From positions 32,365 to 96,364 of the forward strand of contig JBEKIX010000002.1 in assembly GCA_050011535.1 (NCBI GenBank): DNA of 64,000 nucleotides, written 5' to 3'. The notes beneath the pieces are model-generated. The model saw nothing but the letters and a program-made list of their open reading frames with translations. It was not told where the DNA came from and did no database searches. Position numbers and translations under genes: made by a program. Below are positions 4,756 to 59,968 of the stretch, one piece after another (within the stretch, counting starts at the first letter, position 1; every line of letters begins with the position of its first letter). This stretch comes from Acidobacteriota bacterium. GTDB taxonomy: Bacteria > Acidobacteriota > UBA6911.

Positions 4756-6936
4756 ATGACTATGATCCGCTTCGAGGACCTTGCTGAGAAGGTGCTGCGC
4801 TATCACCCCGAGGCTCTGGAGTTGGTTCAGCGCGGCTATGTCGTATCCGCAAAGTTCCACAAAGGGCAATTGCGGATGAATGGCGAGCCTTATCTGACGC
4901 ATCCCCTTGAAGTCGCGAACATTCTTGCCGAACTCAAGATGGACGCGGTGACCGTCACTTCCGGTTTGCTTCACGACGTTCTGGAAGACACCCTCATATC
5001 TCCTGAAGAATTGCGCCGCCAGTTTGGAGACGAGGTTTACCAGATTGTCGACGGGGTCACCAAAATATCGCAGGTCTACTTCAGCTCCCGGCACGAGAAA
5101 CAGGCCGAAAACTTCCGGAAAATGCTGCTTGCCATGGTGGGGGACATCCGCGTGCTGTTTGTAAAGCTGGCCGACCGTCTCCACAATATGCGCACCCTGC
5201 AGTATCTACCCCCGGAGCGGCGCGAACGCATATCGCGGGAGACGCTGGACATCTATGTGCCGCTGGCACACCGCCTGGGCATGGGTCTCATTCGAGGAGA
5301 ACTGGAAGACCTGGCATTCAGCTTCCTCGATCCGGTCGCGTATCAGAACACCGTGTCTCTGATCGAAGCGCGTCGTGCGGTCAGTCAGGATTTCATGCAT
5401 GAAACCAAGAAAGCCATCGCCAGCGAACTGGCGGAGTACAACATTCCGGCACGCCTGGAGAGCCGCATCAAGAGGATTTATGGGGTCTACAATAAGATGC
5501 GCGTCCAGAAAATCAGCATTGATGAGGTCTTCGACTTCATTGCGATTCGCGTCATCACCGACACGGTCAAGAACTGCTATACGATACTGGGAATCCTGCA
5601 CAATCTGTGGAAACCTGTTCCCGGACGGATCAAGGACTATATTGCCATCCCCCGTCCCAACCTCTATCAGTCCCTGCACACTTCGGTGGTTGGGAAGAAC
5701 GGGCAGCCGTTCGAAATCCAGATCCGTACCCAGGAGATGCATAGAATCGCGGAGTTCGGCATCGCGGCCCACTGGAAATATAAGGAAGGGAAACTGGGTG
5801 TCGTGGAGGGCGAAGACCAAATCCAATGGCTCAGGCAGCTGATTGATTCCCAAAACGAGATCAGTGATCCTCGCGAGTTTCTCAGCAGCCTCAAGGTCGA
5901 TCTTTACCCGGATGAGGTCTATTGCTTTACGCCCATGGGTGAGGTTATCACCCTGCCACGCGGCGCTACTCCGGTCGACTTCGCCTACGCCATTCACACC
6001 CAGGTGGGGCATCACTGCGTCGGGGCAAAGGTCAATAGCCGGATCATGCCGCTTCGACACAAACTGAAGAACGGCGAAATCGTCGAGATTCTGACCTCCA
6101 AAGACGCAGGACCGAACAGGGACTGGCTGGCCTTCGTCAAGACAGCGCGCGCCCGTAATCGAATCCGGCACTGGGTCAATCAGCAGGAGAGGGAGGATGC
6201 CGCGGAGCTTGGAAAGAAATTGCTCGAAAAGCAGGCCCGCAGGTTCAAAACCAGTTGGAAAAAGATCCTGGGCATGCCCGAGCTTTCTCGAGTGTTGGCC
6301 GATCACGGAATTCAGAAGGCGGAGGATCTGTATCCCGCGGTTGGTTTTGGCAAGATTGCGCCGCGTCATATTCTGGCATCACTTTTTCCTGATCTTGCGC
6401 CTCCCGAGGAAACCCAGGAAAAGAAGTCTGCCATTGCCACCGTCGTCAAGAAGGTACTCGGCAGAGGCGAGGCTCCGATCACCGTTAAAGGACAGGACGG
6501 CCTGCTCGTGTACCGTGCGAAGTGCTGCAACCCGATCCGTGGGGATGAAATTGTCGGCTACATCACGCGGGGGAAGGGTATCTCCGTACACACCACGAAC
6601 TGTCCCAATCTTGTCAACTTCCTCGGGTCGGACCGCATGACGGATGTGGAATGGGTCGATGTTCAGGGCGACGAGATTTTCACGGTCCGGCTCGCCATAT
6701 CGATCGAGGACCGCCAGGGCATCCTTGCCGAGATCACGTCGGCAATCTCGAATCTCAAGACCAACATACGGGAGTCACGCTCAACCACGGGGGAAGGCGG
6801 CCTTGGGACGGTAGATTTGACGGTGGAAATCAATGACATCAAACATCTGCAGAAAATCATCAAGGTGCTAAAGGGCATTCGTGGTATTGACGATGTGGCG
6901 CGCGTGGCTAAGATTCCTGAAGAGGCTCACTACTGA
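4756..6936 (+). CDS. rel: bifunctional (p)ppGpp synthetase/hydrolase Rel/SpoT (HD, RelA_SpoT, TGS and ACT domains)
   Basis: HD motif LLHDVLEDT. Synthetase region includes ...RIKRIYGVYNKMR...IRTQEMHRIAEFGIAAHWKYKE. A TGS and a C-terminal ACT-like region (AISNLKTNIRE) follow. A TATAAT box lies at about 4725. Confidence 0.9.
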   Translation: MTMIRFEDLAEKVLRYHPEALELVQRGYVVSAKFHKGQLRMNGEPYLTHPLEVANILAELKMDAVTVTSGLLHDVLEDTLISPEELRRQFGDEVYQIVDGVTKISQVYFSSRHEKQAENFRKMLLAMVGDIRVLFVKLADRLHNMRTLQYLPPERRERISRETLDIYVPLAHRLGMGLIRGELEDLAFSFLDPVAYQNTVSLIEARRAVSQDFMHETKKAIASELAEYNIPARLESRIKRIYGVYNKMRVQKISIDEVFDFIAIRVITDTVKNCYTILGILHNLWKPVPGRIKDYIAIPRPNLYQSLHTSVVGKNGQPFEIQIRTQEMHRIAEFGIAAHWKYKEGKLGVVEGEDQIQWLRQLIDSQNEISDPREFLSSLKVDLYPDEVYCFTPMGEVITLPRGATPVDFAYAIHTQVGHHCVGAKVNSRIMPLRHKLKNGEIVEILTSKDAGPNRDWLAFVKTARARNRIRHWVNQQEREDAAELGKKLLEKQARRFKTSWKKILGMPELSRVLADHGIQKAEDLYPAVGFGKIAPRHILASLFPDLAPPEETQEKKSAIATVVKKVLGRGEAPITVKGQDGLLVYRAKCCNPIRGDEIVGYITRGKGISVHTTNCPNLVNFLGSDRMTDVEWVDVQGDEIFTVRLAISIEDRQGILAEITSAISNLKTNIRESRSTTGEGGLGTVDLTVEINDIKHLQKIIKVLKGIRGIDDVARVAKIPEEAHY

Positions 6937-6979
6937 CCCGTCGCAGTTGGCGATAGAAACCGATTCAAAGGAGTGCTTC

Positions 6980-7357
6980 ATGCGAGAAATCATCAAGACT
7001 GCGCAGGCCCCGGATCCGATTGGACCTTACTCACAGGCAATTCGCGCTAGTGGTTTAATCTTCGTTTCGGGACAGATCCCGATTGATCCGGCGACCAGTT
7101 CAGTGTCAGGCGGGGACATAGCGGTGCAAACGCGACAGGTCATGAGGAACCTCTCCGCGATTCTGGCGGCGGGGGCAAGTGGAATGGACAAAATCGTGAA
7201 GACCACCGTATTTCTGAGCAATCTGGACGATTTTCAGAAGTTCAACGAGGTGTACGCGGAATTCCTTGGAAGCTCGAAGCCGGCACGCGCAACGGTTGAG
7301 GTGTCCCGGCTCCCCAAAGGGGTCTTGATTCAGATCGATGCGATTGCTCTAGCCTGA
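6980..7357 (+). CDS. ridA: RidA/YjgF family reactive-intermediate deaminase
   Basis: AAGGAG RBS precedes the ATG at 6980; the ORF-track start 6881 is an upstream extension. The protein begins MREIIKTAQAPDPIGPYSQAI... Confidence 0.8.
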   Translation: MREIIKTAQAPDPIGPYSQAIRASGLIFVSGQIPIDPATSSVSGGDIAVQTRQVMRNLSAILAAGASGMDKIVKTTVFLSNLDDFQKFNEVYAEFLGSSKPARATVEVSRLPKGVLIQIDAIALA

Positions 7358-7364
7358 TCGCACG

Positions 7365-7441
7365 AAGGGGGCATTTCGCTTTTCCAACTCCCGGGCGGAA
7401 AGAACGGCCGCGAGACTGGAAAATCGGAATGCCCCCTTTTT
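7365..7441 (+). terminator. long-range hairpin plus U-tract downstream of ridA
   Basis: AAGGGGGCATT (7365-7375) pairs with AATGCCCCCTT (7428-7438) across a 52-nt loop. TTTTT follows. Confidence 0.35.
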
Positions 7442-7611
7442 GCGAAGATTCCGCCGTGCAATGAAATGTGGGCGTTAAGCCTTCGTCACTTTTCCGGAGC
7501 GCAGGCAACGCGTGCAAACGCGAACTCGCTTAACCGCACCCTTTTCCACAATGCGAACGCTTTGGAGGTTGGGATAGAACTTTCGTGAACGAACGTTGTG
7601 CGCGTGCGAAA

Positions 7612-7637
7612 CCGTGTGTCCGAACACGGGGCTTTTT
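7612..7637 (+). terminator. intrinsic terminator-like hairpin (CCGTGT-gtccga-ACACGG then GGCTTTTT)
   Basis: 6-bp GC-rich stem, 6-nt loop and a T5 tail on the + strand. No annotated + strand gene ends here. Confidence 0.45.
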
Positions 7638-7783
7638 GCGCAAGAATAACATTGCATCGGCATAAACCGTCTCCACTCAGAGGCCGTAATGCTATCAGTC
7701 GGGGCGCGGCCAGTCAACAGACAATGCGGGGTGCTCGGGCTGCGCTGACGCAGGCCTTCTTCAGGCGCTGCCGAGAGCACAGC

Positions 7784-8596
7784 TTATCCCACTAAGTCCT
7801 CGCCGCCGTCGATTCCGAGAACATTCCCTGTCATCCAGTTCGAATCGCAGGAAACCAGCGCGACAATAGTCCGAGCGACATCGTCGGGCGTTGTCAGGCG
7901 CTTCCCGGGATTAAACGAGAGAGCTTGCGCAAACATACGGTCGCTCCCGGGGATCTTCCGTGCCGCCGGTGTGTCGGTCACGCCCGCACGCAATGCATTG
8001 GCGCTGATGCCGTAGGGTGCAAGTTCAACCGCCAACTGCCTGACGTGAGCCTCGAGAGCAGCCTTCGCGGCAGAGACGGCTCCATAGCCCGGCCAAACGC
8101 GGTGTCCGCCGGCGCTGGTCATGGCAAAGATCTTGGCACCTTCTCTCAGCATACCCGTCGTATACAGATCCTGGACCCAGTAGACCAGGCTGTGCGCCAT
8201 CACGTCGAGTGTCATATTCATATCGGCCGTGCGAATGGCTTTTTCGCTTTCGGAGGAAATGTAGGGTTTTAGAGTGCCGAATGCCAGGGAGTGAAGTAGA
8301 ACCTCGATGCAACCGCCGCGCGATGGTTCACCGATCTCCTCGCGGCAACGCTGAATGACCTCGGCACGCCTGATGGGATCCGCGGCATTCACGTTGAAAA
8401 AGATGGCCTTTTGGTTCATGGCATGAATGTCGGAAAGGACCCGCTCGGCGGCTGCAAGCGTGGCACGCCTGTCCAGATGCACGCCGAAAACATGATAGCC
8501 GCTGCGAGCCAAGGCAAGGCTCGCGGCTGCGCCAAACCCGCTTGAAGCACCCAGGATGAGCGCCCATTTTTCTCGAGTCGAATTGTCAGCCGTCAT
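7784..8596 (-). CDS. SDR-family oxidoreductase (enoyl-reductase-like short-chain dehydrogenase)
   Basis: Start reassigned to the ATG at 8596, which has GGAGGA 5 nt upstream. Gly-rich dinucleotide-binding motif [12 protein letters not shown] and catalytic Y..K motif (YGAVSAAK) are present. The ORF-track N-terminal extension is rejected. Confidence 0.7.
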
Positions 8597-8776
8597 GATT
8601 CCTCCTTGAAAAGCACCCAAAATATTAGGGAGCGCGCAGCAGGATTGCAACCGGATTGCATCTCGAAGGTTGCGCGCGGTATCGACAGAGGTGTAAGATT
8701 TCTCGCTCACCGGAACCCATTGCGGGTTAGATATAGTGTTTGCCATTCAAACAGAGTAGCTCGTGGGAGAGGGATC

Positions 8777-9655
8777 ATGGAAACAGCAAAGATAGGGATT
8801 GTCGGCGTGGTCGGATCGGGCACGATGGGAAGCGGCATCGCTCAGGTATTTGCTCAAGCCGGCTATCTAGTGCACCTGTCGGACGTTCGCCAGGATCTTC
8901 TCGAGCGCGCTCTCAAGACAATTGAGAAAAGCCTGGATCGCTTCGTGCAAAAGGGCAGCCTTACCGTGCCGGATCGTAACTCGACCTTGAGCCGGATATC
9001 ACCGGCTCCGGGATTATCGGCTTTTTCCACGTGTGGCCTGGCTGTCGAAGCAGTGAATGAGAATTTCGCGATCAAGCGGGCGGTCCTGCAGGAGCTGGAT
9101 GCTATTTGCGAGCAGGATGCCATCCTGGCTACCAACACCTCGTCAATCTCCATTACCAAACTGGCTGCTGCAACCAAGAGACCGGATCGCTTCATCGGGA
9201 TGCACTTCATGAATCCGGTCCCACTCATGAAACTCGTAGAGATCATTCGTGGGCTGGAGACATCCGATGCCACCTGCCGACAAATCATGGACCTCGCGGC
9301 CGCACTTGGAAAGACGCCCGTGGAAGTGCGCGATTATCCCGGTTTTATCTCGAATCGGGTCCTCCTTCCCATGATCAACGAGGCCGTGTTTGCGTTGATG
9401 GAAGGCGTTGCCTCCCGCGAAGCCATCGATACCGTGATGAAGCTGGGCATGAATCATCCCATGGGACCATTGACGCTGGCCGATTTCATCGGGCTGGACG
9501 TGTGCCTCGACATCTTGCGCGTGATGCATGAAGGCCTTGGCGACCCGAAGTACCGGCCCTGCCCGCTCCTGATCAAAATGGTGGATGCCGGCCTGCTCGG
9601 GCGTAAAACAGGCCGCGGTTTCTATGATTATCGAGAAAAGGAAGGAAAAGCCTAA
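8777..9655 (+). CDS. hbd: 3-hydroxybutyryl-CoA / 3-hydroxyacyl-CoA dehydrogenase
   Basis: Begins [24 protein letters not shown] (NAD-binding GxGxxG). A 3HCDH C-terminal domain is present. ATG at 8777 is preceded by GGGAGAGGGA. Confidence 0.8.
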
Positions 9656-10692
9656 TGGCGGACGATCGTACCAACAAGAACAAGGCGATAGAAGTTGCTT
9701 TGACCCAGATCGAAAAGCAGTTTGGGAAGGGTTCGATCATGCGTCTCGGCGACCGCATTGATCCTTCAGGGGTAAGGGCGATCTCGACCGGCTCGATCTC
9801 GTTCGACGCTGCCCTCGGCATCGGAGGATTCCCCAAAGGGCGCGTGGTCGAGGTTTTCGGCCCGGAATCGAGCGGCAAAACCACCGTGGCGCTCCATGCA
9901 ATCGCGCAGGCGCAGAAGCTGGGCGGTGCAGCGGCCTTCATCGACGCAGAGCATGCCATGGATGCAAAGTATGCGAAGATGCTGGGCGTCAACACCGACG
10001 AACTGCTGGTCTCGCAGCCCGACAGCGGTGAACAGGCTTTAGAGATCGCGGAAGTCCTCGTTCGCAGCGGCGCGATCGACATCCTTGTGGTCGATTCGGT
10101 GGCGGCGCTCGTCCCGAAAGCCGAGCTCGAAGGTGAGATGGGAGACTCGCTGCCGGGGCTGCAGGCGAGGCTGATGTCGCAGGCACTGCGAAAACTGACC
10201 GCCATCGTTTCCAAATCAGACACCTGCCTGATCTTCATCAATCAGATGCGAGAAAAGATCGGCGTGATGTTTGGCAATCCGGAAACCACGTCAGGCGGTC
10301 GTGCTCTGAAGTTCTACTCTTCGATTCGAGTCGATATCCGGCGTATTGGTTCCATCAAAGAGGGGGACCAGGTGGTCGGAAACCGCACCCGCGCCAAAGT
10401 TGTCAAGAACAAGCTGGCGCCGCCGTTTCGCGAGGCCGAATTTGACCTTTTGTATAACCAGGGAATCTCGTATGAAGGGGACTTGGTCGATCTCGCCGTC
10501 GATCGGAAACTCATCGACAAGAGCGGCTCCTGGTTTTCCTACAAGAATGAACGCCTCGGCCAGGGCAGGGAAGCTGCAAAACAGTTCGTCCGTGAACACC
10601 ATGACATCGCGATTGAACTGGACGGCCTGCTGCGCCAGCTCCTCGGCCTGGTAAAGCCGGAGCCAGCCGCCGCCAGCGGCAAGACCAAATAG
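9655..10692 (+). CDS. recA: recombinase RecA
   Basis: Contains GPESSGKTT (Walker A) and ...[15 protein letters not shown]. The ATG overlaps the hbd stop (TAATG). Confidence 0.95.
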
Positions 10693-10756: not shown

Positions 10757-11131
10757 TTGGAGACGGCCAGGCAATCGCGATCCTGATTTCAGGATCGAGG
10801 AAAGTCCGAACTCCACAGGGCAGTGCGCCTCGTAACGCGAGGGAGGGGCGACCCTACGGAAAGTGCCACAGAAAACATACCGCCTTCGTTTTTGAGGGTA
10901 AGGGTGAAAAGGTGCGGTAAGAGCGCACCGCGTCATTGGTAACAATGATGGCAGGGTAAACCCCGCACGGAGCAAGGTCAAATAGAAAAGCGATCCCGCA
11001 AGGGATGAAGGATGGCCCGTCCGGTGCTTTTGGGTGGACCGCTTGATCTCTGGAGCGATCCAGAGACCAGATGAATGATTGCCGTCCCGGCAAAACCGGG
11101 AAACAAAATTCGGCTTATGGCCGTCTCCAGT
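10757..11131 (+). ncRNA. rnpB: RNase P RNA, bacterial type A
   Basis: Conserved blocks GAGGAAAGUCCGaaCUCCAcAGGGCAG, GGUAAGGGUGAAAaGGUGCGGUAAGAGCGCACC, GGUAAAC.CC.C.CGGAGCAAGG.CAAAUAG and ACCAGAUGAAUGA...ACAaaAUUCGGCUUAU are all present. The P1 helix pairs GGAGACGGCC (10759-10768) with GGCCGUCUCC (11118-11127). Confidence 0.88.
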
Positions 11132-11204
11132 CCTCCAGGACTCATCTTCTCTCCAGCATTTGGGAGAGCTGGTCGTGCAGAGACCATAAAGCGTTTGATT
11201 AAAC

Positions 11205-26436: not shown

Positions 26437-27583
26437 ATGATCGAGGAGTTGCGCGAGAAAGTGAACGCCATCATGCAAAAAGTCGAACAGGTTCGAGGTT
26501 ATCTTTGATGTAGAACATAAGCGGGCAGAAATCGCCCAGATAGAAAAAAGAGTCGCTCAGCCCGACTTTTGGTCTCGCCACGAAGAGGTTCAATCGATCC
26601 TGCAGACGAAGCGCCGCCTCGAGCGCGACGTTGAGCTGGATTCTCAGCTGTCGCGCGACATCTCCGACCTGGGCGCCCTTTTGGACCTTGCCGTGGAAGG
26701 AGAGGATGTTCTTTCCGAGTTGGATGCTGAGACGGATCGTCTCGCGCAAGAGATAAAGCAAACCGAAATCCGGACACTGCTTTCCGGTGAGCACGACGAC
26801 AGTAACGCGATTGTCAGTATTCATCCCGGAGCCGGCGGCACCGAATCACAGGACTGGGCTGAGATGCTGCTGCGCATGTACCTGCGCTGGTCGGAGCGCT
26901 CAGGGTACGGGACCGAAATTCTCGACTATCAGCAAGGAGAGGAGGCAGGTATCAAGTCGGTCACCTTTCTGGTAAAAGGTGATTATGCCTACGGCAACCT
27001 GGGCGCCGAGATCGGAGTGCACCGTCTGGTGCGCATTTCGCCTTTTGATGCCGCGGCGCGCCGGCACACGAGCTTTGCTTCAGTATTCGTATACCCGGAA
27101 ATCGACGATAAGATTGAAGTTCAAATCGACGAGAAGGACCTTAGAATCGACACGTACCGTTCTTCCGGGGCTGGGGGGCAACATGTCAACGTGACCGACT
27201 CCGCCGTTCGCATCACGCACATTCCCACCGGTATCGTCGTTTCGTGCCAGAACGAGAGATCGCAGATTCGGAATCGGGACATGGCGCGCAAGGTTTTGCG
27301 CGCGCGGCTGTACGATCTGGAGTTGGAAAAGAAGCGCAAACAGCTGCAGGCCGTGGAAGATACCAAGTTGGACATCGCCTGGGGCAGCCAAATCCGTTCG
27401 TACGTCCTGCATCCATATCGCATGGTGAAAGACCATCGCACCAAGTACGAGACTTCAAACACCGATCGCGTGTTGGACGGCGAGCTTGATGATTTCATAT
27501 ATCAGTATCTGGTCTTTCGCGAGAAATCCAGGAAGCGAGACAACGTGGTCGGGCCGGAGAGCAATTCCAGGGCTGCGAAATGA
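26437..27583 (+). CDS. prfB: peptide chain release factor 2, requiring a programmed +1 ribosomal frameshift: join(26437..26505,26507..27583)
   Basis: Frame-0 ORF MIEELREKVNAIMQKVEQVRGYL ends at CTT TGA. The +1 frame continues DVEHKRAEIAQIEKRVAQPDFWSRHEEVQSILQTKRRLERDVELDSQLSRDISDLGALLDLAVEGEDV... into the ORF-track entry 26681..27583. The SPF tripeptide (RISPF) and GGQ (SGAGGQHVN) motifs are present. An SD-like GAGGU lies 3 nt upstream of UAU CUU UGA. Confidence 0.9.
26491..26509 (+). other. RF2 autoregulatory recoding site (internal SD GAGGU, slippery CUU U, in-frame UGA)
   Basis: Sequence gttcGAGGTtatCTTTGAtg. CUU is at 26503-26505, and T26506 is skipped in the +1 shift. Confidence 0.85.
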
Positions 27584-28374
27584 TGAATGGAGAAATCGTG
27601 GAAACCGAAAAAAGTACAGGCGTTGCTAAGCAAGCTCTGGCGCAGACGAAGCGACCTGGGAGGCCGGCGTATCACAGCAGGACGTATACGGGTCTCTTGA
27701 TCTTCGTCATCGTTGTCGGCCTGCCGTTGATCGCCATACCTTCCCTGAGACAACGTTTGAAGACGCGCTTCGACATGATTAGAGCGGCGGTTCGCGGCGA
27801 GCAGCTTCCGCCGCCGCCTGCCTTTGCTCGCGTCGGTCAAAATCAGGTGCCGTTTCCCCGCGAATACGAACAGCCGCAGCCTCGCCCCGCCTTTTTGGCA
27901 GGTCTGATAGCGCCTCGACAGCACGCATCGATTGTGGTCACAGACCAAGTCGGGGTGCCCACTATCGTCCCCGCGCCGCTCAAGCGAACTCTCGGGTCGC
28001 CGTCGCCTATTCCTTCAAAGGGAAAGCCTGGAACGCCGCCCGCGGCACTGGCCTCCGTGCCCGCACAGGCGGAGACGGAAACTGCAGGGTCCGCAAGTTC
28101 GGAGCCGGTCTACAAGAAAGGAGAGCGCGAACAGGAGGCTTATGACATCGTGCTAAACGCGAATCAAACCCTGGCAGGAATGGTCAAAGGGAGCGATGCG
28201 ACGCTCAAATTCCAGGACTGGGCTGCGGCTAACATGGGCGAGGGTTCCTATTACGTGATGGTGACCTTCGCACAAACTGCAGACAATGTGGCCCGCAAAT
28301 ACATTTGGAATGTCAAGGTGTCTTCGAAAGAGGTGACACCACTGAGCTCCTATGCTATGTCCATTTCCAAATAG
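27580..28374 (+). CDS. hypothetical single-pass membrane protein (cytoplasmic N-tail, TM, Pro-rich linker, roughly 100-aa C-terminal domain)
   Basis: The start overlaps the prfB stop (ATGA). The TM segment is LLIFVIVVGLPLIAIPSL. No recognisable motif was found. Confidence 0.4.
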   Translation: MMNGEIVETEKSTGVAKQALAQTKRPGRPAYHSRTYTGLLIFVIVVGLPLIAIPSLRQRLKTRFDMIRAAVRGEQLPPPPAFARVGQNQVPFPREYEQPQPRPAFLAGLIAPRQHASIVVTDQVGVPTIVPAPLKRTLGSPSPIPSKGKPGTPPAALASVPAQAETETAGSASSEPVYKKGEREQEAYDIVLNANQTLAGMVKGSDATLKFQDWAAANMGEGSYYVMVTFAQTADNVARKYIWNVKVSSKEVTPLSSYAMSISK

Positions 28375-28536: not shown

Positions 28537-31059
28537 ATGCAGATCACGATTTTCAGATTCTTGCGCGCATTGCTGATAGGTCTGATTGCTCTGATCTCGC
28601 TCGCCGTGCTGGTCAATTACTCGCAGACCGCGCGCCGCAGGCGCGCTGCCGTTAAACCGATCACGCAGATCCTGAGCCCCGAGATGTTGCGGTCGGCAAA
28701 CAATATTGAGTACTTCGCAAACTCGCAAGGCGGCACCAAGTTTCGCCTGCAAGCTCTGAAACTGCTGGAAAATCGCCAAGGGAAAGAGCTCCTGGAAGGT
28801 GTCACCGCAAATGATTTCGACAGCGAAGGAAACGAGGTCAATCACATTACGAGCGAATGGCTCGAATACGACACAATCGGTAAACAGCTGTTCTTCTATG
28901 GGAAAGTGCGTCTCCATCCAGGGAAGGGCGTCGAGCTGCGCATGCAGACGCTTCACTATAATTTGAAGGACCAGATCGGCTATTCGGATGACCGTTTTCA
29001 GCTCGTTTCGACGCAGGCCGACGGAACGGCGCGGGGAGTCCGCTACGATAATGCCCGCAAGCGCATGGAGCTTCTACACGAAGTTGCATTTGTCGTGCAC
29101 CGGAGTGCGCCCGCCGCGGATGGTTCCGCTCAGAATCAGGATTATCGCCTTTTTTCTCAGCAAGGGACGTACTCCGAGACGGAGCATACGGTGCGTCTAA
29201 ACGGCGCGGCCAGGATCGTATCCGCGACCGGCACACTGGCAGGCGACCGGATTACAGCGACGTTCACGCCGGAAGGGAAACAGCTGACGGGTCTCGTCTG
29301 CGACGGTAACTCTGTTTACGAATCCGTGTACGGGACCGAATCGAGGAAGCTGCAGGGAGAGCGCATCGAGCTGGGCATCAACCAGGCATCACGTACGCTC
29401 GAGAAAATTCTGGTGCACGAACACGCCAGCTTCAGCTCAAATTCTGCCGACGGAGAGCAGAAACTGGATGCGTCGGAAATCCAGCTTGAATTGGATCCGG
29501 TAAAAGGGACGCCACGCACGATCCGGAGCCAGGCAGGCATACGCTTCACCGTCGCGCGTGGAGGGCAGAGCACGGTGCTGACCGGTGACTGGATGGAGGC
29601 AAATTTCGCAGCAGAAGGAGGTGCCCTGGAAGACATGCATCTTCGCGACCATGCGAGCATGATCATGAACAATGCCTCAGGCCGGCCCGATGAGCTTCAA
29701 GCGCAGGACATTCACCTGACGTTCAGCAATTCCGAAGGGCGCAGCGTTCCCCGGGAACTGCAGGCACAAGGTTCGATTCAATGGAAATCGCGAAGTGGCG
29801 GACCTCCAGGCGGCGCGGCAGGAAGCAGCGACAGATCCCTGAACGCGTCCTCTTTGCACTTGACCTACTCCCAAAACGGAGATTTCCTGGAGTCAGGAAC
29901 CGCGGAAAACAACGTGGTCTTGTCCGCGCTTCCCTCGGCAACGGCCACGACAGGTCTGGACCAGCGCCTTCAGTGCGATCGGCTTTCATTCGACTTTTAT
30001 CCCGGCAACAACCGGCTTCGAAGGCTGATTGGTGAGGGTGACGTACGGGTTTTCTATCGCAAACCCGCTGGATCCGGCGGACATTCTTCTTTCGAAGAGT
30101 TTCACACCTCGAGTTCGAGCATCCAGGCTCAATTCCGTGAGAGTGACGGCAGCGCAGAATCGGTCAATCAGTCAGGCAAATTTGTTTACCAGGACGCGAC
30201 GCGAACTGCCAAGGCGGGGACGTGCGACTACGATGCCACCACGGATATGGTTGATTTGCGCAATCATCCGAGCGTTGCGGACTCAGATTCCGCCACCAGT
30301 GGCGATGTGATTAGGTACGCGCGCAACCAAGGCTTGCTGACCGTTCAAGATCACGTTCGTTCGATACTAATGTCCACCAGGGATCACACCTCCGGATTTC
30401 TTACCACCTCCTCCAGTTCGTCTTCGCCCTGCGTCGTCAGTGCCAATGAAATGCAGTATTGGACCAACGGAAACGCAGTCACTTATACAGGACACGTGCA
30501 GTTGCTTTCGGCGACAGGCCAGTTCCAGGCGGATTCGCTTACCCTCTTGGACTCCGGACAGCGCGTTGAAGGCAAGGGAAATGTACGCCATTTGCTATCG
30601 GGCACAGCTATGACCAATTCGGATAAGCGCCCCCGCGAAAACGGAACGTCTGCCGCCAAAACTGACGATAAGGCAAAGGTGGTGAAGCAGACCCTCATCC
30701 GCAGCGCCCGGTTTCAGTACAACCGGGCTGAAAACCGAATGCACTACGAAGATAACGTGACGCTGGATTCGCCCGACGCCAAAGCAAAAGCGGACAGCCT
30801 GGACGCCTTTTTGGATGCCGACGGGACAAAGCTTGAGCGGGCAACTGCACAGGGCAATGTGCTTATTACACAACCGGGCAGGGAGGTAAAAGGCGCAACT
30901 GCCGAGTATCTCCTGTCCGAAGGCAAGGTCGTTGTGACGGGAAACCCTGCCACCGGAAGTCTTGCGGAACTCCGTGATTACGTTAAGGGCACGTCGAGGG
31001 CCCTTCGATTGACATTTTTTACAGCCGATGATAGGATCGTGCTCGAAAATCGCAAGTAG
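28537..31059 (+). CDS. LPS-transport periplasmic bridge protein, apparent LptC-LptA fusion with expanded OstA-like beta-jellyroll repeats (840 aa)
   Basis: N-terminal TM anchor plus an LptC-like domain (residues ~1-190). Repeated OstA/LptA-like segments follow. A canonical LptA C-terminus ([37 protein letters not shown]) sits immediately upstream of lptB. There is no stop codon in 2,520 nt. Confidence 0.55.
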
Positions 31060-31091
31060 GCATGTATGATACTGATTGTAAAAGACTTGTG

Positions 31092-31823
31092 ATGAATGAC
31101 TCCAGATTGCAGGCCTTTGGTTTGGAGAAGTCCTACCGGGGAAGGATGGTGGTCAGTGAAGTCGTCCTCGAACTCCGACAGGGTGAGGTCGTGGGACTTT
31201 TGGGCCCCAATGGAGCCGGAAAGACCACGACGTTTTATATCGTAGTCGGGCTGATCCCACCGGATGCAGGCAGGGTTCTGCTGAATGGGGCGGACGTAAC
31301 CAATCTGCCGATGTATCAGAGGGCGCGTTCCGGAATAAGCTACCTTCCACAGGAACCATCGGTGTTCCGCAAGCTCACGGTGGAGGAGAACCTGAAGAGC
31401 ATCGCCGAAACGCTGCCGATCTCCGTGGCAGAACAGGGAGAGAGAGTGGCGGGCCTGCTCGAAGAATTTGGAATTGAGGCGTTGCGGCGCCAGGGAGCAT
31501 ATACCCTGTCCGGCGGTGAACGGCGTCGCTTAGAGATTGCCCGAGCACTTGTCCTTACTCCCAAGTTTGTCCTTCTCGATGAACCCTTCGCCGGCATTGA
31601 CCCTCTTGCCGTCCTTGATATCCAGAGAATCATCAGTCGGTTGAAGGAGCGCGGCATCGGGGTCCTGGTTACCGATCACAATGTGCGCGAAACTTTGAAT
31701 ATCACGGATCGCGCTTATATAATAAGCGAGGGCAAGATCTTGCGTGAAGGCACTCCTGAACAATTGACGAACGACGTGGAGGTTAGGAAGGTTTACCTCG
31801 GCGAAAATTTCAGGCTTAACTAA
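31092..31823 (+). CDS. lptB: LPS export ABC transporter ATP-binding protein
   Basis: [36 protein letters not shown] aligns with E. coli LptB. The ATG at 31092 is preferred over 31062. Confidence 0.85.
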
Positions 31824-40624: not shown

Positions 40625-42457
40625 ATGAATGAATTCCGTAAGCTGCTGCCCTTCATCCGACCATATAGCTTTAGTTTGATCATTTCCTTCGTCTTGCTGG
40701 TAGCCTCCGGCCTTCTCGAGGTTGGAACCACAGCTCTTGTGATTCCGTTGTTCGACAAACTCTTTCCAGGGCAAGCAGTCCAGGTGAGCGACGCCTTGCA
40801 GCAAAAGCTCGCGATCTTGAGCCGGACATTATCCGTGTTGCCCGGAGATCTTCTCGTGCAGGTCTCGATTGCGCTCCTTTTGTTCACTTTCCTGAAGGGT
40901 CTGTGCCTCTACGCATCCAATTACAAAATGAGCTATGTGGGGCAGGGGGTAGTCACCGACCTGAGGAATCACCTTTACCGGCATGTGCTGAGCCAGTCGA
41001 TGGGCTTTTTTTCACTGAATTCCACAGGGCGTCTGATGTCGCGCATGAACAGCGACGTCGAACAGGTTCAGGAAGCGGTATCCACATCCGTCGCAGACCT
41101 CTTTCGCGAGGCTGTCCTTCTCATATCCCTGGTGGTCTGGGTTTTCTGGCTTGACTGGAAGCTGGCCCTACTGTCGTTGACCATCGCCCCCGTAGCGCTC
41201 GTGCTCACGATGGTGATGGGGAAGAGAATCCGCCAGGCAAGTCTCAGCAGCAGGGAAAACATTGCCTCCCTGAGCGACCTGATTCAGCAGTCCCTAACGG
41301 GCATGCGAATTCTGAAAGCGTTCGGAATGGAGTCCCATGAACAGAAGCGTTTCGAAAAGGTCGCCCAACGCCTTTTCTCCGCCAATATGAGAGCTGCCCG
41401 CATTCTGTTCATCAACTCTCCGGCGATGGAAATGGTAGGGGTGACGTGCTTCGTTCCGCTTGTTTTCTATGCATACTATCGGATTTATATAGAGCATACG
41501 CTGCTGGCCAGCCTGTTCGCCGGGGGAATCTTCTCCCTTTTTAAAATGTACGATCCTATCCGTAGACTCAGCCGCCTTCATGTCGGATTCAAGCGCGCGT
41601 TTGCCTCCGCTTCGCGGATCACCGAATTGTTTGAAACGCATGTCGAGATTCATGATCGGCCTGACCCTCTCATTCTCGAAGGCGTGGAGGATTCTGTCGA
41701 ATTCAGGGACGTCTGTTTTGACTACCAAGGAAACGGAGATGAAGCGGTCCTCAGGCACATTAATCTTATTGTACCCCGTAACAAGGTCATCGCCTTGGTA
41801 GGAAGCAGCGGCTCCGGGAAAACGACCCTGGTGAGTCTGATTCCTCGCTTCTATGACGTGACTTCAGGGGCGGTCCTGATTGACCGGGTGGATGTTCGGG
41901 ATTACAGCCAGAGTTCGCTGCGCCGGAACATCGCCATCGTCACGCAGGAGACTTTCCTCTTCAACGACACGATCCGAAACAACATCGCGTACGGAGACAT
42001 CGATTCCTCGGAGGAGAGAATCGTAGCCGCGGCGCGGGCCGCCCTGGCTCACGACTTTATCGAACAAATGCCGAAGAAGTATGAGACGCGAATCGGCGAG
42101 CGCGGCCAGAGGCTCTCCGGCGGCGAAAGGCAGAGGATCTGCATCGCGCGCGCGATTCTAAGAAACGCCCCGATCCTCATCCTCGACGAGGCTACCTCGG
42201 CCCTCGATTCGGAATCCGAGCAGTTGGTGCAGCGGGCATTAGCCAATCTCATGCAGGACCGGACGACATTCGTGATCGCACACCGTCTATCCACGATCCG
42301 GAGCGCGAATGAAATTATCGTCATCGAAAAAGGCAGGATTATGGAGATTGGTACTCATGACACCCTGCTGGAGCGTGGCGGTCTGTACGCCCGGTTTTAC
42401 AGGCTGCAGACGGACGACCTCTTCGCAGAAGGAGCGGAGATCGTGCGGAGCTCCTAG
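40625..42457 (+). CDS. msbA: lipid A export ABC transporter MsbA-like (fused permease/ATPase)
   Basis: Six-TM N-domain plus an NBD with Walker A GSSGSGKTT, signature LSGGERQR and Walker B ILILDEATSALD. Confidence 0.8.
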   Translation: MNEFRKLLPFIRPYSFSLIISFVLLVASGLLEVGTTALVIPLFDKLFPGQAVQVSDALQQKLAILSRTLSVLPGDLLVQVSIALLLFTFLKGLCLYASNYKMSYVGQGVVTDLRNHLYRHVLSQSMGFFSLNSTGRLMSRMNSDVEQVQEAVSTSVADLFREAVLLISLVVWVFWLDWKLALLSLTIAPVALVLTMVMGKRIRQASLSSRENIASLSDLIQQSLTGMRILKAFGMESHEQKRFEKVAQRLFSANMRAARILFINSPAMEMVGVTCFVPLVFYAYYRIYIEHTLLASLFAGGIFSLFKMYDPIRRLSRLHVGFKRAFASASRITELFETHVEIHDRPDPLILEGVEDSVEFRDVCFDYQGNGDEAVLRHINLIVPRNKVIALVGSSGSGKTTLVSLIPRFYDVTSGAVLIDRVDVRDYSQSSLRRNIAIVTQETFLFNDTIRNNIAYGDIDSSEERIVAAARAALAHDFIEQMPKKYETRIGERGQRLSGGERQRICIARAILRNAPILILDEATSALDSESEQLVQRALANLMQDRTTFVIAHRLSTIRSANEIIVIEKGRIMEIGTHDTLLERGGLYARFYRLQTDDLFAEGAEIVRSS

Positions 42458-52358: not shown

Positions 52359-52448
52359 TTTTGTATAAACAACTGGTACTGGCACTAAATCTTGTATAAA
52401 ATCTGGAAATACTACTTGACAGTATATTTTGATTTTATTATACAAAAG
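52359..52448 (+). promoter_or_regulatory. AT-rich promoter (TTGACA-17-TATACA at 52416-52444) flanked by three copies of a TTGTATAAA motif (two direct, one inverted)
   Basis: cTTTTGTATAAacaaCTGG at 52359-52376 and cTTGTATAAAatCTGG at 52391-52406. The inverted copy TTATACAAAAG at 52438-52448 overlaps the -10. RBS GGAGAGG is at 52457-52463. Confidence 0.55.
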
Positions 52449-52467
52449 GGGACATTGGAGAGGTTGG

Positions 52468-53490
52468 ATGCGAGTCGGACTGACATATAACTTGAAGCGT
52501 GGCGAACCTGAAGAGGGGCAGGAACCTCCAAGTAGCAGCCGGGAGGCTCAGGCAGAGTGGGACGAGCCGGAAACCGTCCATGCGGTCATAGATGCCATAC
52601 GGGAACGCCACGAAGTCCTGCCGATTGACGCCGCAGAAGATCCCTACAATGCCTTGCGCGAGGCGCGGCCCGACATTGTATTCAACATGGCGGAAGGAAC
52701 ATTCGGACCCTGCCGTGAAGGTCACATTCCCTCGATTCTCGAGTTTCTGAACATCCCATATACAGCCAGCGACCCATTGACGCTGAGTGTCTGCCTCGAC
52801 AAGTCGCGTGCCAAGGAGATCCTCGCGTATCATGCGCTGCCGACGGCCCGCTTTCGTGTTGTTTCCAGCGTGGAACCTTCGTTCAACACCCTGCACTTTC
52901 CACTTATGGTGAAGCCGCTCTTTGAGGGTTCGAGCATGGGCATCCGGAACGATTCGGTGGTTCAGACACACCAGGAGCTGCACGCCAAGGTGGAGTGGGT
53001 CGTGCGGCGATTCCATCAGCCGGCCATTGTGGAAGAGTTCCTGTCGGGACGAGAGTTCACGGTTGCCATCCTGGGAAACGGCGTGGAAGCCCGGGCACTC
53101 CCGATGGTTGAGGTGCGGTTCGACTCGCTGCCGGCAGGGGTGAATCCCATCTATTCTTATGAAGCCAAGTGGGTATGGGATCAGAGTTCCAAACCGCTTG
53201 AGATTTTTAGCTGTCCGGCGAAGATAGACGAAAAATTGCGAGCGGCGATCGAGCGCATCTGTCTGGAGGCTTATCGAATCCTGAGATGCCGGGACTGGTG
53301 CCGTATCGACGTACGCCTCGATTCAGCGAACCGTCCGCACATTCTTGAATTGAATCCGCTTCCCGGAATTCTTCCGCGGCCGGAGGACAACTCCTGCTTT
53401 CCGAAAGCGGCTCGGGCGGCGGGCATGTCGTACAACCAACTGATCAACGAAGTCCTTGACATTGCTTGCCGGCGGTACGGAATCTCCTGA
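52468..53490 (+). CDS. ATP-grasp ligase of the D-Ala-D-Ala ligase family (copy 1)
   Basis: RVGLTYNLKRG N-terminus. Ddl-like central and C-terminal motifs FPLMVKPLFEGSSMGI, EEFLSGREFTVAILG, RIDVRLDSANRPHILELNPLPG. ATG at 52468. Confidence 0.75.
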   Translation: MRVGLTYNLKRGEPEEGQEPPSSSREAQAEWDEPETVHAVIDAIRERHEVLPIDAAEDPYNALREARPDIVFNMAEGTFGPCREGHIPSILEFLNIPYTASDPLTLSVCLDKSRAKEILAYHALPTARFRVVSSVEPSFNTLHFPLMVKPLFEGSSMGIRNDSVVQTHQELHAKVEWVVRRFHQPAIVEEFLSGREFTVAILGNGVEARALPMVEVRFDSLPAGVNPIYSYEAKWVWDQSSKPLEIFSCPAKIDEKLRAAIERICLEAYRILRCRDWCRIDVRLDSANRPHILELNPLPGILPRPEDNSCFPKAARAAGMSYNQLINEVLDIACRRYGIS

Positions 53491-54536
53491 TGGCACGATC
53501 AGACTGCATTATCCTTTATAACGCCTCTACCGTCAGGCAGATGCCCTCTTCGGAAGAGAAGATCTATCCGGCAAACCTCCTGCGCGAAGAGGCCGGCGCC
53601 ATCGAAGAGAGTTTGCGCGAGCTCGGCTATGCGCCTTTAGTGCTTGCCATCGATTACTTCACGAAAGATCTCGTGGCAACGATTCAGCGCGTCGCTCCCA
53701 AGTTCATCTTCAACTTGTGCGAAGAGCTTCAGGGAGACTGCGAACTGGAGATGTGTATCGCCGGATTATTCGAGCTCATGAACATTCCGTACACGGGCTC
53801 GAGACCGTTGGCGCTCGGTCTGGCGTTGAACAAATTCCGCGTCAAACAGGTGCTGCGTGCCGCCGGCATCCCTGTGCCGCGAGGCTTTCTCTGCCCGATC
53901 GGACAGCAGCTCAAACCCCGGGCTCTGGGCCGTTTTCCTGTTTTCGTGAAGCCGGTCCACGAGGACGCGAGCCTAGGAATCAACGCCCACTCGGTCTGCC
54001 ACGATTTCACACAGCTCGAGAGACAAGTCTCATACATCCATCATGTTTATAACCAGGATGCGCTCATCGAGGAATTTTTGGAGGGCAGGGAGTTCAATGT
54101 TTCCATTCTGGGCGGACAGATCGCTCGGGTGCTCGCAATCTCCGAGATCGATTTCAGCAGCATGCCTGATGGCGAACCAAGAATCGTGAGCTATCGTGCA
54201 AAGTGGGACGAAGAGAGTAGCGTCTTTCAGTGCAGCGTTCCGGTCTGTCCCGCGGAGATCCCTCACCGCCTCGAAAGCCGGATCAAGAGCATCGCGATGC
54301 GTAGCTTCCAATGTGTAGGGTGCCGTGACTACGCCAGGGTGGATATGCGCACGGATTCCCTTGGGAACGCGTGCGTGATGGATGTCAATCCTAATCCGGA
54401 TCTTTCTCCGCACGCGGGATTCTTCCGCGCGGCGCGGGCGGCGGGCATGACTTACACTGACATGGTCTCGCACATCACTCAATCCGCATTGGAGCGAGTG
54501 ACAAAGGCTCCCTCGACGGCATATGTCTTCTCCTGA
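53490..54536 (+). CDS. ATP-grasp ligase of the D-Ala-D-Ala ligase family (copy 2)
   Basis: ATGA overlap with copy 1. Motifs FPVFVKPVHEDASLGI, EEFLEGREFNVSILG, RVDMRTDSLGNACVMDVNPNP. Confidence 0.75.
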   Translation: MARSDCIILYNASTVRQMPSSEEKIYPANLLREEAGAIEESLRELGYAPLVLAIDYFTKDLVATIQRVAPKFIFNLCEELQGDCELEMCIAGLFELMNIPYTGSRPLALGLALNKFRVKQVLRAAGIPVPRGFLCPIGQQLKPRALGRFPVFVKPVHEDASLGINAHSVCHDFTQLERQVSYIHHVYNQDALIEEFLEGREFNVSILGGQIARVLAISEIDFSSMPDGEPRIVSYRAKWDEESSVFQCSVPVCPAEIPHRLESRIKSIAMRSFQCVGCRDYARVDMRTDSLGNACVMDVNPNPDLSPHAGFFRAARAAGMTYTDMVSHITQSALERVTKAPSTAYVFS

Positions 54537-55023
54537 CTCTCATATACACTCGATTCGCAATCTGGAACCGCGCGATCGCGCCGCGATTGCGAACATCGTG
54601 CAAAGTGTCGGCAATTTCAATCAGGCAGAGATCGAGTGCGCTCTCGAACTGGTCGACGCATGCCTGAACGATACCAATCAGAAGGACTATCGGATCGTCG
54701 TGGATGAGATCGCTGGAGAAGTCTGTGGCTATGCATGCTGGGGACTGGCTCCGCTTACCAAAGGAACATTTGATCTTTATTGGATCGCCGCGCATCCCGG
54801 AGCTCAGGCACGCGGCGTCGGACGCGCCTTGATGGCGCACGTTGAAAACCAGGTGCGCGCGGAGAATGGCAGGCTCCTCATAATTGAAACTTCCTCCAAG
54901 GAATCATACGGGAATACCGTGGGATTCTATCGCCGCTTGGGATATGAAGAGGCGTCGCGAATACGGGATTTCTACGACGCGGGTGACGATAAGCTGATAT
55001 TTGTAAGGAGATTTTCCCGGTAA
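54523..55023 (+). CDS. GNAT-family N-acetyltransferase
   Basis: Acetyl-CoA-binding motif A region HPGAQARGVGRALMAHVE. 166 aa. Overlaps the copy-2 3' end by 14 nt. Confidence 0.75.
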   Translation: MSSPDSHIHSIRNLEPRDRAAIANIVQSVGNFNQAEIECALELVDACLNDTNQKDYRIVVDEIAGEVCGYACWGLAPLTKGTFDLYWIAAHPGAQARGVGRALMAHVENQVRAENGRLLIIETSSKESYGNTVGFYRRLGYEEASRIRDFYDAGDDKLIFVRRFSR

Positions 55024-55038
55024 GGAGAATTGTTGTCC

Positions 55039-56124
55039 ATGAAACAGTGGATGCTTGACCTGCGCAACAGCGTCACCAATGGGGAAACGGTCTGCGAGGA
55101 CTTCGACGCCGAAAAGGATGAAATCGACGTCGTCCGCGATGTCTATCCAATGCGGATTCCCCGTTATTACTACAACCTGATCCGCGAGAAGGGGGATCCC
55201 ATCTGGATGCAGTCGGTCCCCTCGATCCAGGAGCTCCAGGACATGGACGCTCCCGAGGATCCGCTTCATGAGGATGAAGACAGCCCGGTCACCCGGCTTA
55301 CCCACCGGTATCCAGACCGCGTCCTTCTGCTGATCACAGACCGCTGCCCCATGTATTGCCGGTTCTGCACACGCAAACGAATGGTGGGACGAACGAGCGA
55401 TATTACGGAGCGCACCATCGCAATCGGTATCGAGTATATCCGCGCTCACAAGGAAATCCGCGATGTCCTGCTCTCGGGCGGCGACCCGCTGATGGTCAGC
55501 GACGAAAAGCTCGAGAGCATTATATCGAGGCTGCGTGAAATCCCTCACGTCGAGATCGTACGCCTGGGAACCAGATTCCCTTGCGTTCTCCCGAGCCGGA
55601 TTACGGACGAGCTTTGCAACATGCTCAAGAAGTACCATCCGATATTCGTCAATACACACTTCAACCATCCGCGCGAACTCACTCCGGAAGCCAGAGGCGC
55701 GTGTGAGCGTCTGGCAAACGCGGGCATACCCGTCGGTTGTCAGACCGTGCTGATGAAGGGTGTCAACGACGATCCTGAGGTGATCAAGGAGCTGATGCAC
55801 AAGCTCGTGATGGCCCGCGTGCGGCCGTATTACCTCTACCAGACCGATCTCACGCGCGGCACCAACCATTTCCGCACACGTGTTGAGATGGGGCTGCAGA
55901 TCATCCAGGCACTCCGAGGACACACGAGCGGATTTGCAGTCCCCCAATTCGTCATCGATGCTCCCGGCGGCGGCGGCAAGATTCCCTTGATGCCCGAGTA
56001 TGTTGTGGGCTTCGACGAAAAGGAAATTGTGCTCAGAAACTTCGAAGGCAGACTCTTCCGTTACCCGCAACCCACGGAAGAGTATGTTCGCGATGTGCGC
56101 GAAATCGAAGTGATCAACTTCTAG
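55039..56124 (+). CDS. lysine 2,3-aminomutase family radical-SAM enzyme, short form (KamA/EpmB-like)
   Basis: CPMYCRFCTRKRMVG (CxxxCxxC) plus KamA-family blocks LLSGGDPLM, VRLGTRFP, FVNTHFNHPREL, GIPVGCQTVLMKGVNDD, RPYYLYQTDL. AAGGAG lies 11 nt upstream. Confidence 0.85.
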   Translation: MKQWMLDLRNSVTNGETVCEDFDAEKDEIDVVRDVYPMRIPRYYYNLIREKGDPIWMQSVPSIQELQDMDAPEDPLHEDEDSPVTRLTHRYPDRVLLLITDRCPMYCRFCTRKRMVGRTSDITERTIAIGIEYIRAHKEIRDVLLSGGDPLMVSDEKLESIISRLREIPHVEIVRLGTRFPCVLPSRITDELCNMLKKYHPIFVNTHFNHPRELTPEARGACERLANAGIPVGCQTVLMKGVNDDPEVIKELMHKLVMARVRPYYLYQTDLTRGTNHFRTRVEMGLQIIQALRGHTSGFAVPQFVIDAPGGGGKIPLMPEYVVGFDEKEIVLRNFEGRLFRYPQPTEEYVRDVREIEVINF

Positions 56125-56134
56125 CGATTGCAGG

Positions 56135-56222
56135 TTGACGATTGACGATTGAAAGCCGGGCAATGCTCCCCGCCCCTGAGCCCGCCAGCTTTCAATCGTC
56201 AATCTGAGATTGTCTGTTTTTT
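56135..56222 (+). terminator. 17-bp perfect-stem hairpin (GATTGACGATTGAAAGC ... GCTTTCAATCGTCAATC, 31-nt loop) containing tandem TTGACGA repeats, with a T6 tract 12 nt downstream
   Basis: Arms lie at 56140-56156 and 56188-56204. TTTTTT is at 56217-56222. Confidence 0.45.
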
Positions 56223-56364
56223 CAATTGCCGCACCGGTCGCCCGTACGCTGGGGATCGAGTAACATTCCAGCAACATTGGCTTGCCTCAGCCGCGACAGG
56301 CTGGTAATCTTGCCCCGTCATTTCCGGGAAATCAAAGACGCAATCGAGTCAAGATGGGGAACGT

Positions 56365-58011: not shown

Positions 58012-58035
58012 AATCCAGCACTGCAGCGAAACCTC

Positions 58036-58860
58036 ATGAATCCGGTCACGATTGGCAGCTTGAAACTGAGTCGCGGCGGGCCACCGTTTTTCGTCGCTGG
58101 ACCATGCGTGATCGAGAGCGAAAAACACTGTCTCAAGATCGCTGAAAGACTGGCGGCAATCGCGGAGCGAAGCCGCATCCAACTGATCTTCAAGGCCTCC
58201 TACGATAAAGCCAACCGCACATCGGCCGGCTCTTTTCGCGGGCCGGGTCTGGCAGAAGGACTGCGGATCCTCGAAAAGGCGCGCGCCGTCAGCGGGCTTC
58301 TCATTCTGAGCGACGTGCACGAATCCGCGCAGATCGGCGCCGCAGCGCAGGTCCTGGATGTTCTTCAGATTCCAGCGTTTCTCTGCCGGCAGACAGATTT
58401 GATTCTCGCCGCTGCGCGCAGCGGCCGCGCCGTCAATCTCAAAAAGGGCCAGTTTCTCTCTCCTCTGGAAATGCGCAACGTTCTTGAAAAGGCGCTGTCG
58501 ACAGGTAATCGCAACATTCTGTTGACCGAGCGTGGAACTTTTTTTGGGTACAATAACCTTGTGGTCGACTTTCGTTCTCTCGTCATCATGCGATCGTTCG
58601 GGCAACCGGTGATTTTTGATGCCACCCATAGCGTGCAGACTCCGGGCGGGGCAGGCGACCGGTCCGGTGGACAATCTGAGTTCATTCCTCCTCTGGCGCG
58701 CGCAGCCGTAGCTGCAGGAGTGGACGGGCTTTTTTTCGAAGTGCACGATCATCCCGAGAGAGCGTTATCGGATGGACCCAACGCGCTTCGTTTGCGCTCA
58801 TTTCCGCGGCTCGTGCAGGATCTGCTCGAGATTCACGCCACAGTTTGGAGAAAATCATGA
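58036..58860 (+). CDS. kdsA: 3-deoxy-8-phosphooctulonate (KDO-8-P) synthase
   Basis: FFVAGPCVIESE...FKASYDKANRTS. Confidence 0.9.
   Translation: MNPVTIGSLKLSRGGPPFFVAGPCVIESEKHCLKIAERLAAIAERSRIQLIFKASYDKANRTSAGSFRGPGLAEGLRILEKARAVSGLLILSDVHESAQIGAAAQVLDVLQIPAFLCRQTDLILAAARSGRAVNLKKGQFLSPLEMRNVLEKALSTGNRNILLTERGTFFGYNNLVVDFRSLVIMRSFGQPVIFDATHSVQTPGGAGDRSGGQSEFIPPLARAAVAAGVDGLFFEVHDHPERALSDGPNALRLRSFPRLVQDLLEIHATVWRKS

Positions 58861-59893: not shown

Positions 59894-59968
<75 letters not shown>

Follow-up and report, generated by a model that had tools for sequence, protein, structure and literature searches.

Can the bridge that carries lipopolysaccharide (LPS) across the periplasm be encoded as a single chain? 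The question is raised by one gene in a 64,000-nucleotide stretch of DNA from an Acidobacteriota bacterium (NCBI GenBank assembly GCA_050011535.1, contig JBEKIX010000002.1, positions 32,365 to 96,364 of the forward strand), which we refer to as "the window." In Escherichia coli, LptC (191 residues) and LptA (185 residues, or ~158 once mature) are separate small proteins. Here, an uninterrupted open reading frame (ORF) of 840 codons plus a stop lies directly upstream of lptB, the gene for the ATPase of the LPS exporter. We refer to this ORF as the fused lptC-lptA gene. A reading made from the letters of the DNA alone (the sequence-only reading) had proposed that the ORF joins an LptC anchor to several LptA-like units, and the analyses described here bear this out. 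We consider it likely that its product is a periplasmic Lpt bridge in one chain, in which about 4 to 4.5 LptA-like units follow an LptC-type anchor and jellyroll in the same polypeptide.

An LptC domain at one end and an LptA-like module at the other

The fused gene starts with ATG and runs from 28537 to 31059 on the + strand; the closest upstream in-frame stop is at 28441. Homologous genes start at the same position, with GTG in some, as seen in an alignment of 12 proteins and in a comparison with a close relative (locus L012). Only 2 nt past the stop of the fused gene, at 31062, lptB begins; its product matches TIGR04406 with 360 bits (cut-off 240). The genes that follow lptB are, in order, rpoN, hpf, hprK, rapZ, and phosphotransferase system (PTS) genes.

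Both ends of the fused protein are recognizable from sequence profiles. The N-terminal region scores above the curated cut-offs of two LptC models: PF06835 matches residues 16–183 (60.2 bits, cut-off 21), and TIGR04409 matches residues 12–185, corresponding to profile positions 3–178 of 180 (70 bits, cut-off 38). This region begins with the sole strongly hydrophobic stretch of the protein, with all 19-residue windows of mean Kyte-Doolittle hydropathy >1.6 starting between residues 1 and 14. No internal hydrophobic or signal segment was found in a hydropathy analysis of the whole protein. PF03968, the family of LptA and the LptD N-terminal domain (LptD_N), scores 75.1 bits (cut-off 20.4) over several stretches, the best of which covers residues 721–804. 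When overlapping pieces of the protein were scanned separately, PF03968 matched residues 207–317 (weakly; E = 0.008), ~533–599, and 721–804, plus a stretch within the piece spanning residues 522–695; the piece spanning residues 290–466 gave no PF03968 match. LptC and LptD_N are the sole Pfam matches of the fused protein.

Comparison of the family profile with sequences in the PDB leads to the same assignment for the C-terminus. LptA chain 8onu_A matches residues 716–809 (E = 2e-4), and LptA chain 7zax_A matches residues 716–824 more weakly (E = 0.054). Because residues 716–824 align to positions 7–119 of 133-residue LptA constructs, the C-terminal 120 residues amount to a complete LptA-like module, which directly abuts lptB as the sequence-only reading had described. 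PDB LptA and LptH chains also align inside residues 536–613. Finally, comparison of the profile with itself using hhalign detects internal repeats offset by ~80 residues, with probabilities of 93–94%: residues 202–351 pair with 282–417 (93.5%), and residues 552–701 pair with 641–776 (94.5%).

A continuous array of predicted jellyrolls

An AlphaFold2 model of the full chain, built on a 12-sequence alignment, has a predicted local distance difference test (pLDDT) score of 82.8 and a predicted template modeling (pTM) score of 0.66. After a helix at residues 3–36 and a low-confidence linker, the model consists of unbroken beta structure from residue 55 to residue 839, comprising ~52 strands as assigned by DSSP, with pLDDT of ~90 over most of the middle. 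Low-confidence loops are limited to residues 422–430, 468–472, 515–517, and 690–715. The fused protein has the OstA-type twisted beta-jellyroll fold by which LptA is recognized, and a Foldseek search of the model against the PDB matched LptD, LptC, LptA, and LptH chains. Target-normalized TM-scores are 0.67–0.79 for LptC chains (6mit_C, 4b54, and 3my2) and 0.70–0.75 for LptA chains.

The middle of the chain, ~450 residues that the sequence-only reading took to be OstA-like, is the part for which an unrelated fold would be most damaging. The segment without a Pfam match, residues 320–480, was modeled alone, giving pLDDT of 80.5 and pTM of 0.75. The top Foldseek match of this model is E. coli LptA (E = 3.6e-3), and the matches ranked just below it include chains of LptA and LptC; therefore, the middle of the chain is also an Lpt jellyroll.

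In total, the chain is predicted to hold about 5 to 5.5 jellyroll units: the LptC module and about 4 to 4.5 LptA-like units. Its ~785 periplasmic residues are roughly equivalent in size to one LptC plus four LptA proteins. Assuming 4.8 Å per strand and ~135–140 residues per eight-strand-long unit, our own rough calculation suggests that the bridge would be ~20–25 nm long if the chain is straight. Module borders, as listed below with the evidence for each feature, were drawn from the strand map of the AlphaFold2 model.

28537..31059 (+): fused lptC-lptA gene (ORF; LptC and LptD_N/LptA matches; full-length homologues; ratio of nonsynonymous to synonymous substitution rates, dN/dS, of 0.22)
28549..28620 (+): N-terminal transmembrane (TM) anchor, residues ~5–28, counterpart of the LptC TM helix (hydropathy; AlphaFold2 helix)
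28633..28656 (+): conserved basic cluster RRRRAAVK, residues 33–40, directly C-terminal of the TM helix (12-protein alignment)
28699..29112 (+): predicted jellyroll module 1, the LptC domain, residues 55–192 (PF06835; TIGR04409; Foldseek)
29128..29493 (+): predicted jellyroll module 2, residues 198–319 (weak PF03968; pLDDT ~90; hhalign repeat)
29512..29931 (+): predicted jellyroll module 3, residues 326–465 (without Pfam match)
29959..30369 (+): predicted jellyroll module 4, residues 475–611 (PF03968; TIGR03002; PDB LptA/LptH chains)
30370..30429 (+): Ser-rich conserved loop, residues 612–631 (12-protein alignment; pLDDT 60–68)
30430..30600 (+): predicted four-strand half-module, residues 632–688 (DSSP strands in the AlphaFold2 model; hhalign repeat)
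30601..30687 (+): Lys/Asp/Ser-rich variable disordered loop, residues 689–717 (pLDDT 30–35; length variation)
30688..31056 (+): C-terminal LptA-like module, residues 718–840 (PF03968; PDB LptA chains; conservation)
31062..31823 (+): lptB, ATPase of the LPS exporter (TIGR04406)

Homologues and selection

The fused architecture is widespread among relatives. Twelve proteins of 822–841 residues, which make up the 12-protein alignment, are 45–100% identical over their full length, with invariant residues along the entire chain. Searching genome contigs with the profile of this alignment recovered full-length matches in seven species-representative genomes, all titled Acidobacteriota, at 34–50% identity; a search of the same kind with a single protein as the query gave no match. 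When 1.84 billion cluster representatives (50% identity) were searched exhaustively with the profile, 4142 matches had E ≤ 1e-3, of which 431 had E ≤ 1e-30. The best 150 of these matches are mostly 730–920 residues long and align end to end, and the long members of the family range from 687 to 921 residues (median 811). Among 55 diverse members (19–31% identical to the query), LptD_N is found in all 55 and LptC in 52. An N-terminal hydrophobic anchor is present in 130 of 137 long relatives. A repeat of the homologue search using the more diverse alignment returned the same 13 proteins, with no change in the taxa.

All relatives that bear a taxon name are Acidobacteriota. They include cultured Chloracidobacterium thermophilum, with a 742-residue member (WP_014100026.1 and AEP12289.1), and related strains; further members come from metagenome-assembled genomes (MAGs) of Blastocatellia and other Acidobacteriota. 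Short representative matches were considered as stand-alone LptA or LptC proteins and rejected: they are pieces of genes cut off at contig ends or by frameshifts, and all of them lack a signal peptide.

The entire fused gene is under purifying selection. Relative to the 84%-identical homologue in L012, dN/dS is 0.22 overall and 0.13–0.32 in each of eight 105-codon windows. Together with >130 full-length relatives, including those in complete genomes of a cultured species, these values remove the concern, raised with the original proposal, that a frameshift hides two separate genes.

Conservation is not uniform along the chain. Conservation scores peak at residues 781–840, such that the C-terminal module carries the most conserved block of the family; G802 is the same in all of the 55 diverse members, and G818, L825, and T826 in nearly all. 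This pattern fits a protein-protein docking surface. Family length varies chiefly in two places: residues 301–390, which are absent from about half of the distant members, and the loop at residues 691–720. The location of this variation suggests that length is gained or lost in steps of approximately half a unit.

Gene neighborhood and the search for a separate lptA or lptC

Two close relatives (L001 and L012) share the order [fused gene]-lptB-rpoN-hpf, as do two distant ones: L009, which encodes a 921-residue protein, and L010, which encodes a 699-residue Blastocatellia protein. In none of these four loci does a separate lptC or lptA lie between the fused gene and lptB. When six-frame translations were searched with hidden Markov models, neither the 64-kb window nor the 6–10 kb around the gene in loci L001 to L012 yielded a second ORF resembling LptA or LptC. 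None of the large ORFs of the window was found to be lptD, lptF, or lptG.

A possible mechanism

By analogy with the E. coli Lpt machine, the N-terminal helix and LptC module would sit in the LptB2FG transporter. LPS, the presumed cargo, would be extracted at the cost of ATP and passed into the LptC module, from which it would be pushed through one continuous hydrophobic groove formed by the fused modules. It would leave at the conserved C-terminal edge, which may dock on the N-terminal jellyroll of outer-membrane LptD. In such a machine, fusion would eliminate both the LptC-LptA and the LptA-LptA junctions and would fix the number of units in the bridge. A single periplasmic protein-protein junction would be left to form, as opposed to the recruitment or oligomerization of free LptA. 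Because four OstA-type domains are estimated to be enough to span the E. coli periplasm, as relayed in a review (PMC3944529), a chain of ~5–5.5 units, together with the LptD domain, would more than cover that distance.

If no free LptA exists, the entire periplasmic Lpt bridge of Acidobacteriota would be one covalent chain. This wider claim is quite possible, and we put it forward tentatively. If it is true, the bridge would be permanent, with fixed stoichiometry and length, as opposed to the transient, LptA-dependent bridge of E. coli; a 2023 article in Nature by Törk and colleagues is reported to describe a transient bridge. The length of the bridge would either be matched to the width of the periplasm or help to set that width. 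The sequence-only reading had raised a related possibility, in which the bridge may have been lengthened to span a wider periplasm. Moreover, nature would have provided a single-chain specimen with which to solve the structure of a complete Lpt bridge.

Weighing the alternatives

Five observations weigh against a single-chain bridge. First, the LptA equivalog model TIGR03002, whose best stretch is residues 552–605, scores 70.8 bits, narrowly below its cut-off of 71.7. Second, the search for a free lptA reached the window and the surroundings of the gene in the other loci, so a separate lptA could lie elsewhere in the genome. Third, the fused gene of C. thermophilum (8001–10229 of locus L011, from CP072632) does not adjoin lptB. 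Fourth, the gene in one MAG (L008, MFD00032.bin.2.131; 5863–8488) is in two overlapping frames, 5863–7401 and 7184–8488, a split that is probably an assembly indel. Fifth, the basic cluster is on the presumed periplasmic flank of the TM helix, contradicting the positive-inside rule.

The first two of these observations bear on an alternative that we regard as unlikely, namely that the protein is an LptC of unusual length, anchored in the membrane, and that the connection to LptD is still made by a soluble LptA whose own gene lies elsewhere in the genome. The NCBI pipeline does label such proteins LptC, TIGR03002 falls slightly short of its cut-off, and the genomes were viewed within 10 kb of the gene. 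However, the C-terminal module spans nearly the whole of LptA, and it contains the most conserved block of the family, as expected for a surface that contacts LptD. Neither the window nor the other loci, including the canonical spot before lptB, revealed a free LptA-like ORF. In addition, an array of ~5–5.5 units exceeds the four OstA domains said to suffice in E. coli (PMC3944529).

We think it very unlikely that the product is a polyprotein, exported whole and then cleaved in a flexible loop (e.g., residues 689–717) to free an LptA-like unit that acts as LptA does elsewhere. A variable disordered loop with pLDDT of only 30–35 does directly precede the terminal LptA-like module; however, this loop lacks any conserved motif at which a protease might cut, the remaining module junctions are continuous, confidently modeled beta structure, and we found no precedent in the literature searched.

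A different cargo is highly improbable. In Borrelia, a genus without LPS, lipoproteins have been suggested as the cargo of Lpt homologues (bioRxiv 10.1101/2022.12.21.521298), and a long jellyroll bridge might similarly move a lipid other than LPS, or function mainly as an envelope tether or spacer. Against this, the canonical position before lptB-rpoN-hpf is kept, and the LptC equivalog model is matched.

Lastly, a sequencing frameshift or assembly join that merges separate lptC and lptA genes, as might be imagined from the two-frame MAG gene and from database entries that are truncated or end in out-of-frame residues, is refuted by >130 full-length homologues found independently in numerous assemblies (finished genomes of cultured Chloracidobacterium among them), by conservation and dN/dS of 0.13–0.32 over the entire length, by the lack of the internal signal peptide that a separate LptA would need, and by the middle 450 residues, which far exceed the content of a two-gene junction.

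Features outside the jellyrolls

Besides the jellyrolls, three features of the fused protein stand out. The first is the basic cluster that follows the TM helix, in which R33 and R35 are invariant among the 12 aligned proteins. Across 123 family members, both flanks of the helix are basic, with means of 3.1 and 3.5 K + R residues. It is tempting to speculate that the cluster contacts lipid A phosphates at the membrane exit. The second is the Ser-rich loop, with the consensus GFLTSSSxSSSP; G620, T623, S629, and P631 are invariant in the 12-protein alignment. The third is the disordered loop at residues 689–717, whose length varies among the same proteins and whose occupancy in the more diverse alignment is 0.58. 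The Ser-rich loop could be a modification site, and the disordered loop a hinge. The invariant M639 was considered as an internal translation start and dismissed, since a protein made from it would have no signal for export.

Other genes of the window

Scans for promoter and terminator consensus sequences, and for Rfam families, revealed nothing informative at the fused-gene locus. Between prfB and the fused gene is a 264-residue ORF (27580–28374, +) with a Pro-rich region and a single TM segment. It matches no Pfam or NCBIfam family, and its position is kept in relatives (251 residues in L001 and 224 in L012). The prfB gene itself (26437–27583, +), encoding release factor 2 (RF2), shows the programmed +1 frameshift that is classical for this gene: a short ORF of 23 codons closes with CTT TGA T at 26503–26509, and the body of RF2 continues in the +1 frame.

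Downstream of the lpt genes, at a distance of ~9.5 kb, is a gene for a 610-residue ABC exporter with fused ABC_membrane and ABC_tran domains (40625–42457, +), with an equivalent position in L001 and L012. The exporter has the architecture of MsbA and is a candidate lipid A flippase. Two adjacent, slightly overlapping genes (52429–53490 and 53466–54536, both +) encode ATP-grasp proteins resembling D-Ala-D-Ala ligase. Two minus-strand ORFs, of 806 codons (56332–58752) and 457 codons (54904–56277), have no Pfam match at E ≤ 0.001, and long plus-strand ORFs overlap both of them. The sole Rfam matches of the window at the gathering threshold are an RNase P RNA (10759–11132, +; bacterial class A, 333 bits) and a tRNA (59894–59965, +). 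In the C. thermophilum sequence CP072632, the neighbors of the gene for the 742-residue fused protein are a glycoside hydrolase family 3 gene and an asparaginase II gene.

Comparison with known systems

The closest known counterpart of the fused gene is the lptC-lptA-lptB region of E. coli, with which it shares the order of TM anchor, LptC jellyroll, LptA-type jellyroll(s), and lptB. The fused protein also has the same fold and the same family matches as E. coli LptC and LptA, and presumably has in common with them a head-to-tail groove for LPS. The differences are ones of connection and size. LptC is a small, one-jellyroll protein of ~190 residues, which the fused protein is not. LptA is a soluble protein of ~185 residues with its own cleavable signal peptide, whereas the LptA-like modules described here are covalently joined to an anchored LptC module. 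We know of no basic cluster after the TM helix, Ser-rich loop, or disordered loop in E. coli LptC or LptA like those of the fused protein. In E. coli, the bridge is formed from separate small proteins (PMC8727689), and the stoichiometry of LptA in vivo is uncertain (PMC6164715; PMC3944529); here, one 840-residue polypeptide is predicted to provide ~5–5.5 units. Other Lpt proteins are more distant matches in this regard: LptD, LptF, and LptG each have a single jellyroll fused to a membrane domain, with no tandem array that spans the periplasm.

Single-chain lipid bridges are known from other systems. Indeed, the description of the Lpt bridge as a set of interacting small jellyroll proteins has been contrasted with the single bridging polypeptide of LetAB (PMC8727689). 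LetB and other MCE tunnels, AsmA/TamB-like proteins, and eukaryotic bridge-like lipid transfer proteins resemble the fused protein in that a single long chain forms an unbroken route for lipids from one membrane to another, and Foldseek detects a weak likeness to chain 9cap_A of the LPD-3 complex (E = 8.5e-5, probability 0.89). However, no sequence relation was detected: neither the fused protein nor its 55 diverse relatives match the Chorein_N, AsmA, or TamB Pfam families. The fused protein differs from these bridges in being built of Lpt jellyrolls, and its motor would be the LptB2FG ABC transporter.

No description of a natural LptC-LptA fusion was found in the full-text literature searched, from which most subscription journals are absent, such that an earlier mention is possible. 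Text matches to "LptCA" were examined as a possible precedent and rejected, since the term stands for the lptCAB operon or, in a single paper, belongs to a notation of another kind. Databases use several names for members of the family: the NCBI name is "LPS export ABC transporter periplasmic protein LptC," and JGI labels them "LptC," "LptA," or "LptC/…LptA." In effect, the automated JGI label "LptC/LptA" had already registered both domains. Genes labeled LptC or LptA alone should have their annotation corrected; surveys for stand-alone lptA could otherwise score the gene as missing.

The architecture indicates that a long groove made of many units is a viable design, and its genetically fixed unit count can be set against periplasmic widths obtained by measurement. 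Structural studies of a complete bridge would gain a single-chain target, and the protein is an example of jellyroll duplication and fusion in a major soil phylum. Since the protein passes the LptC models and has LptA-type modules, the fused multi-module LptC-LptA is best filed as a variant of the known Lpt bridge.

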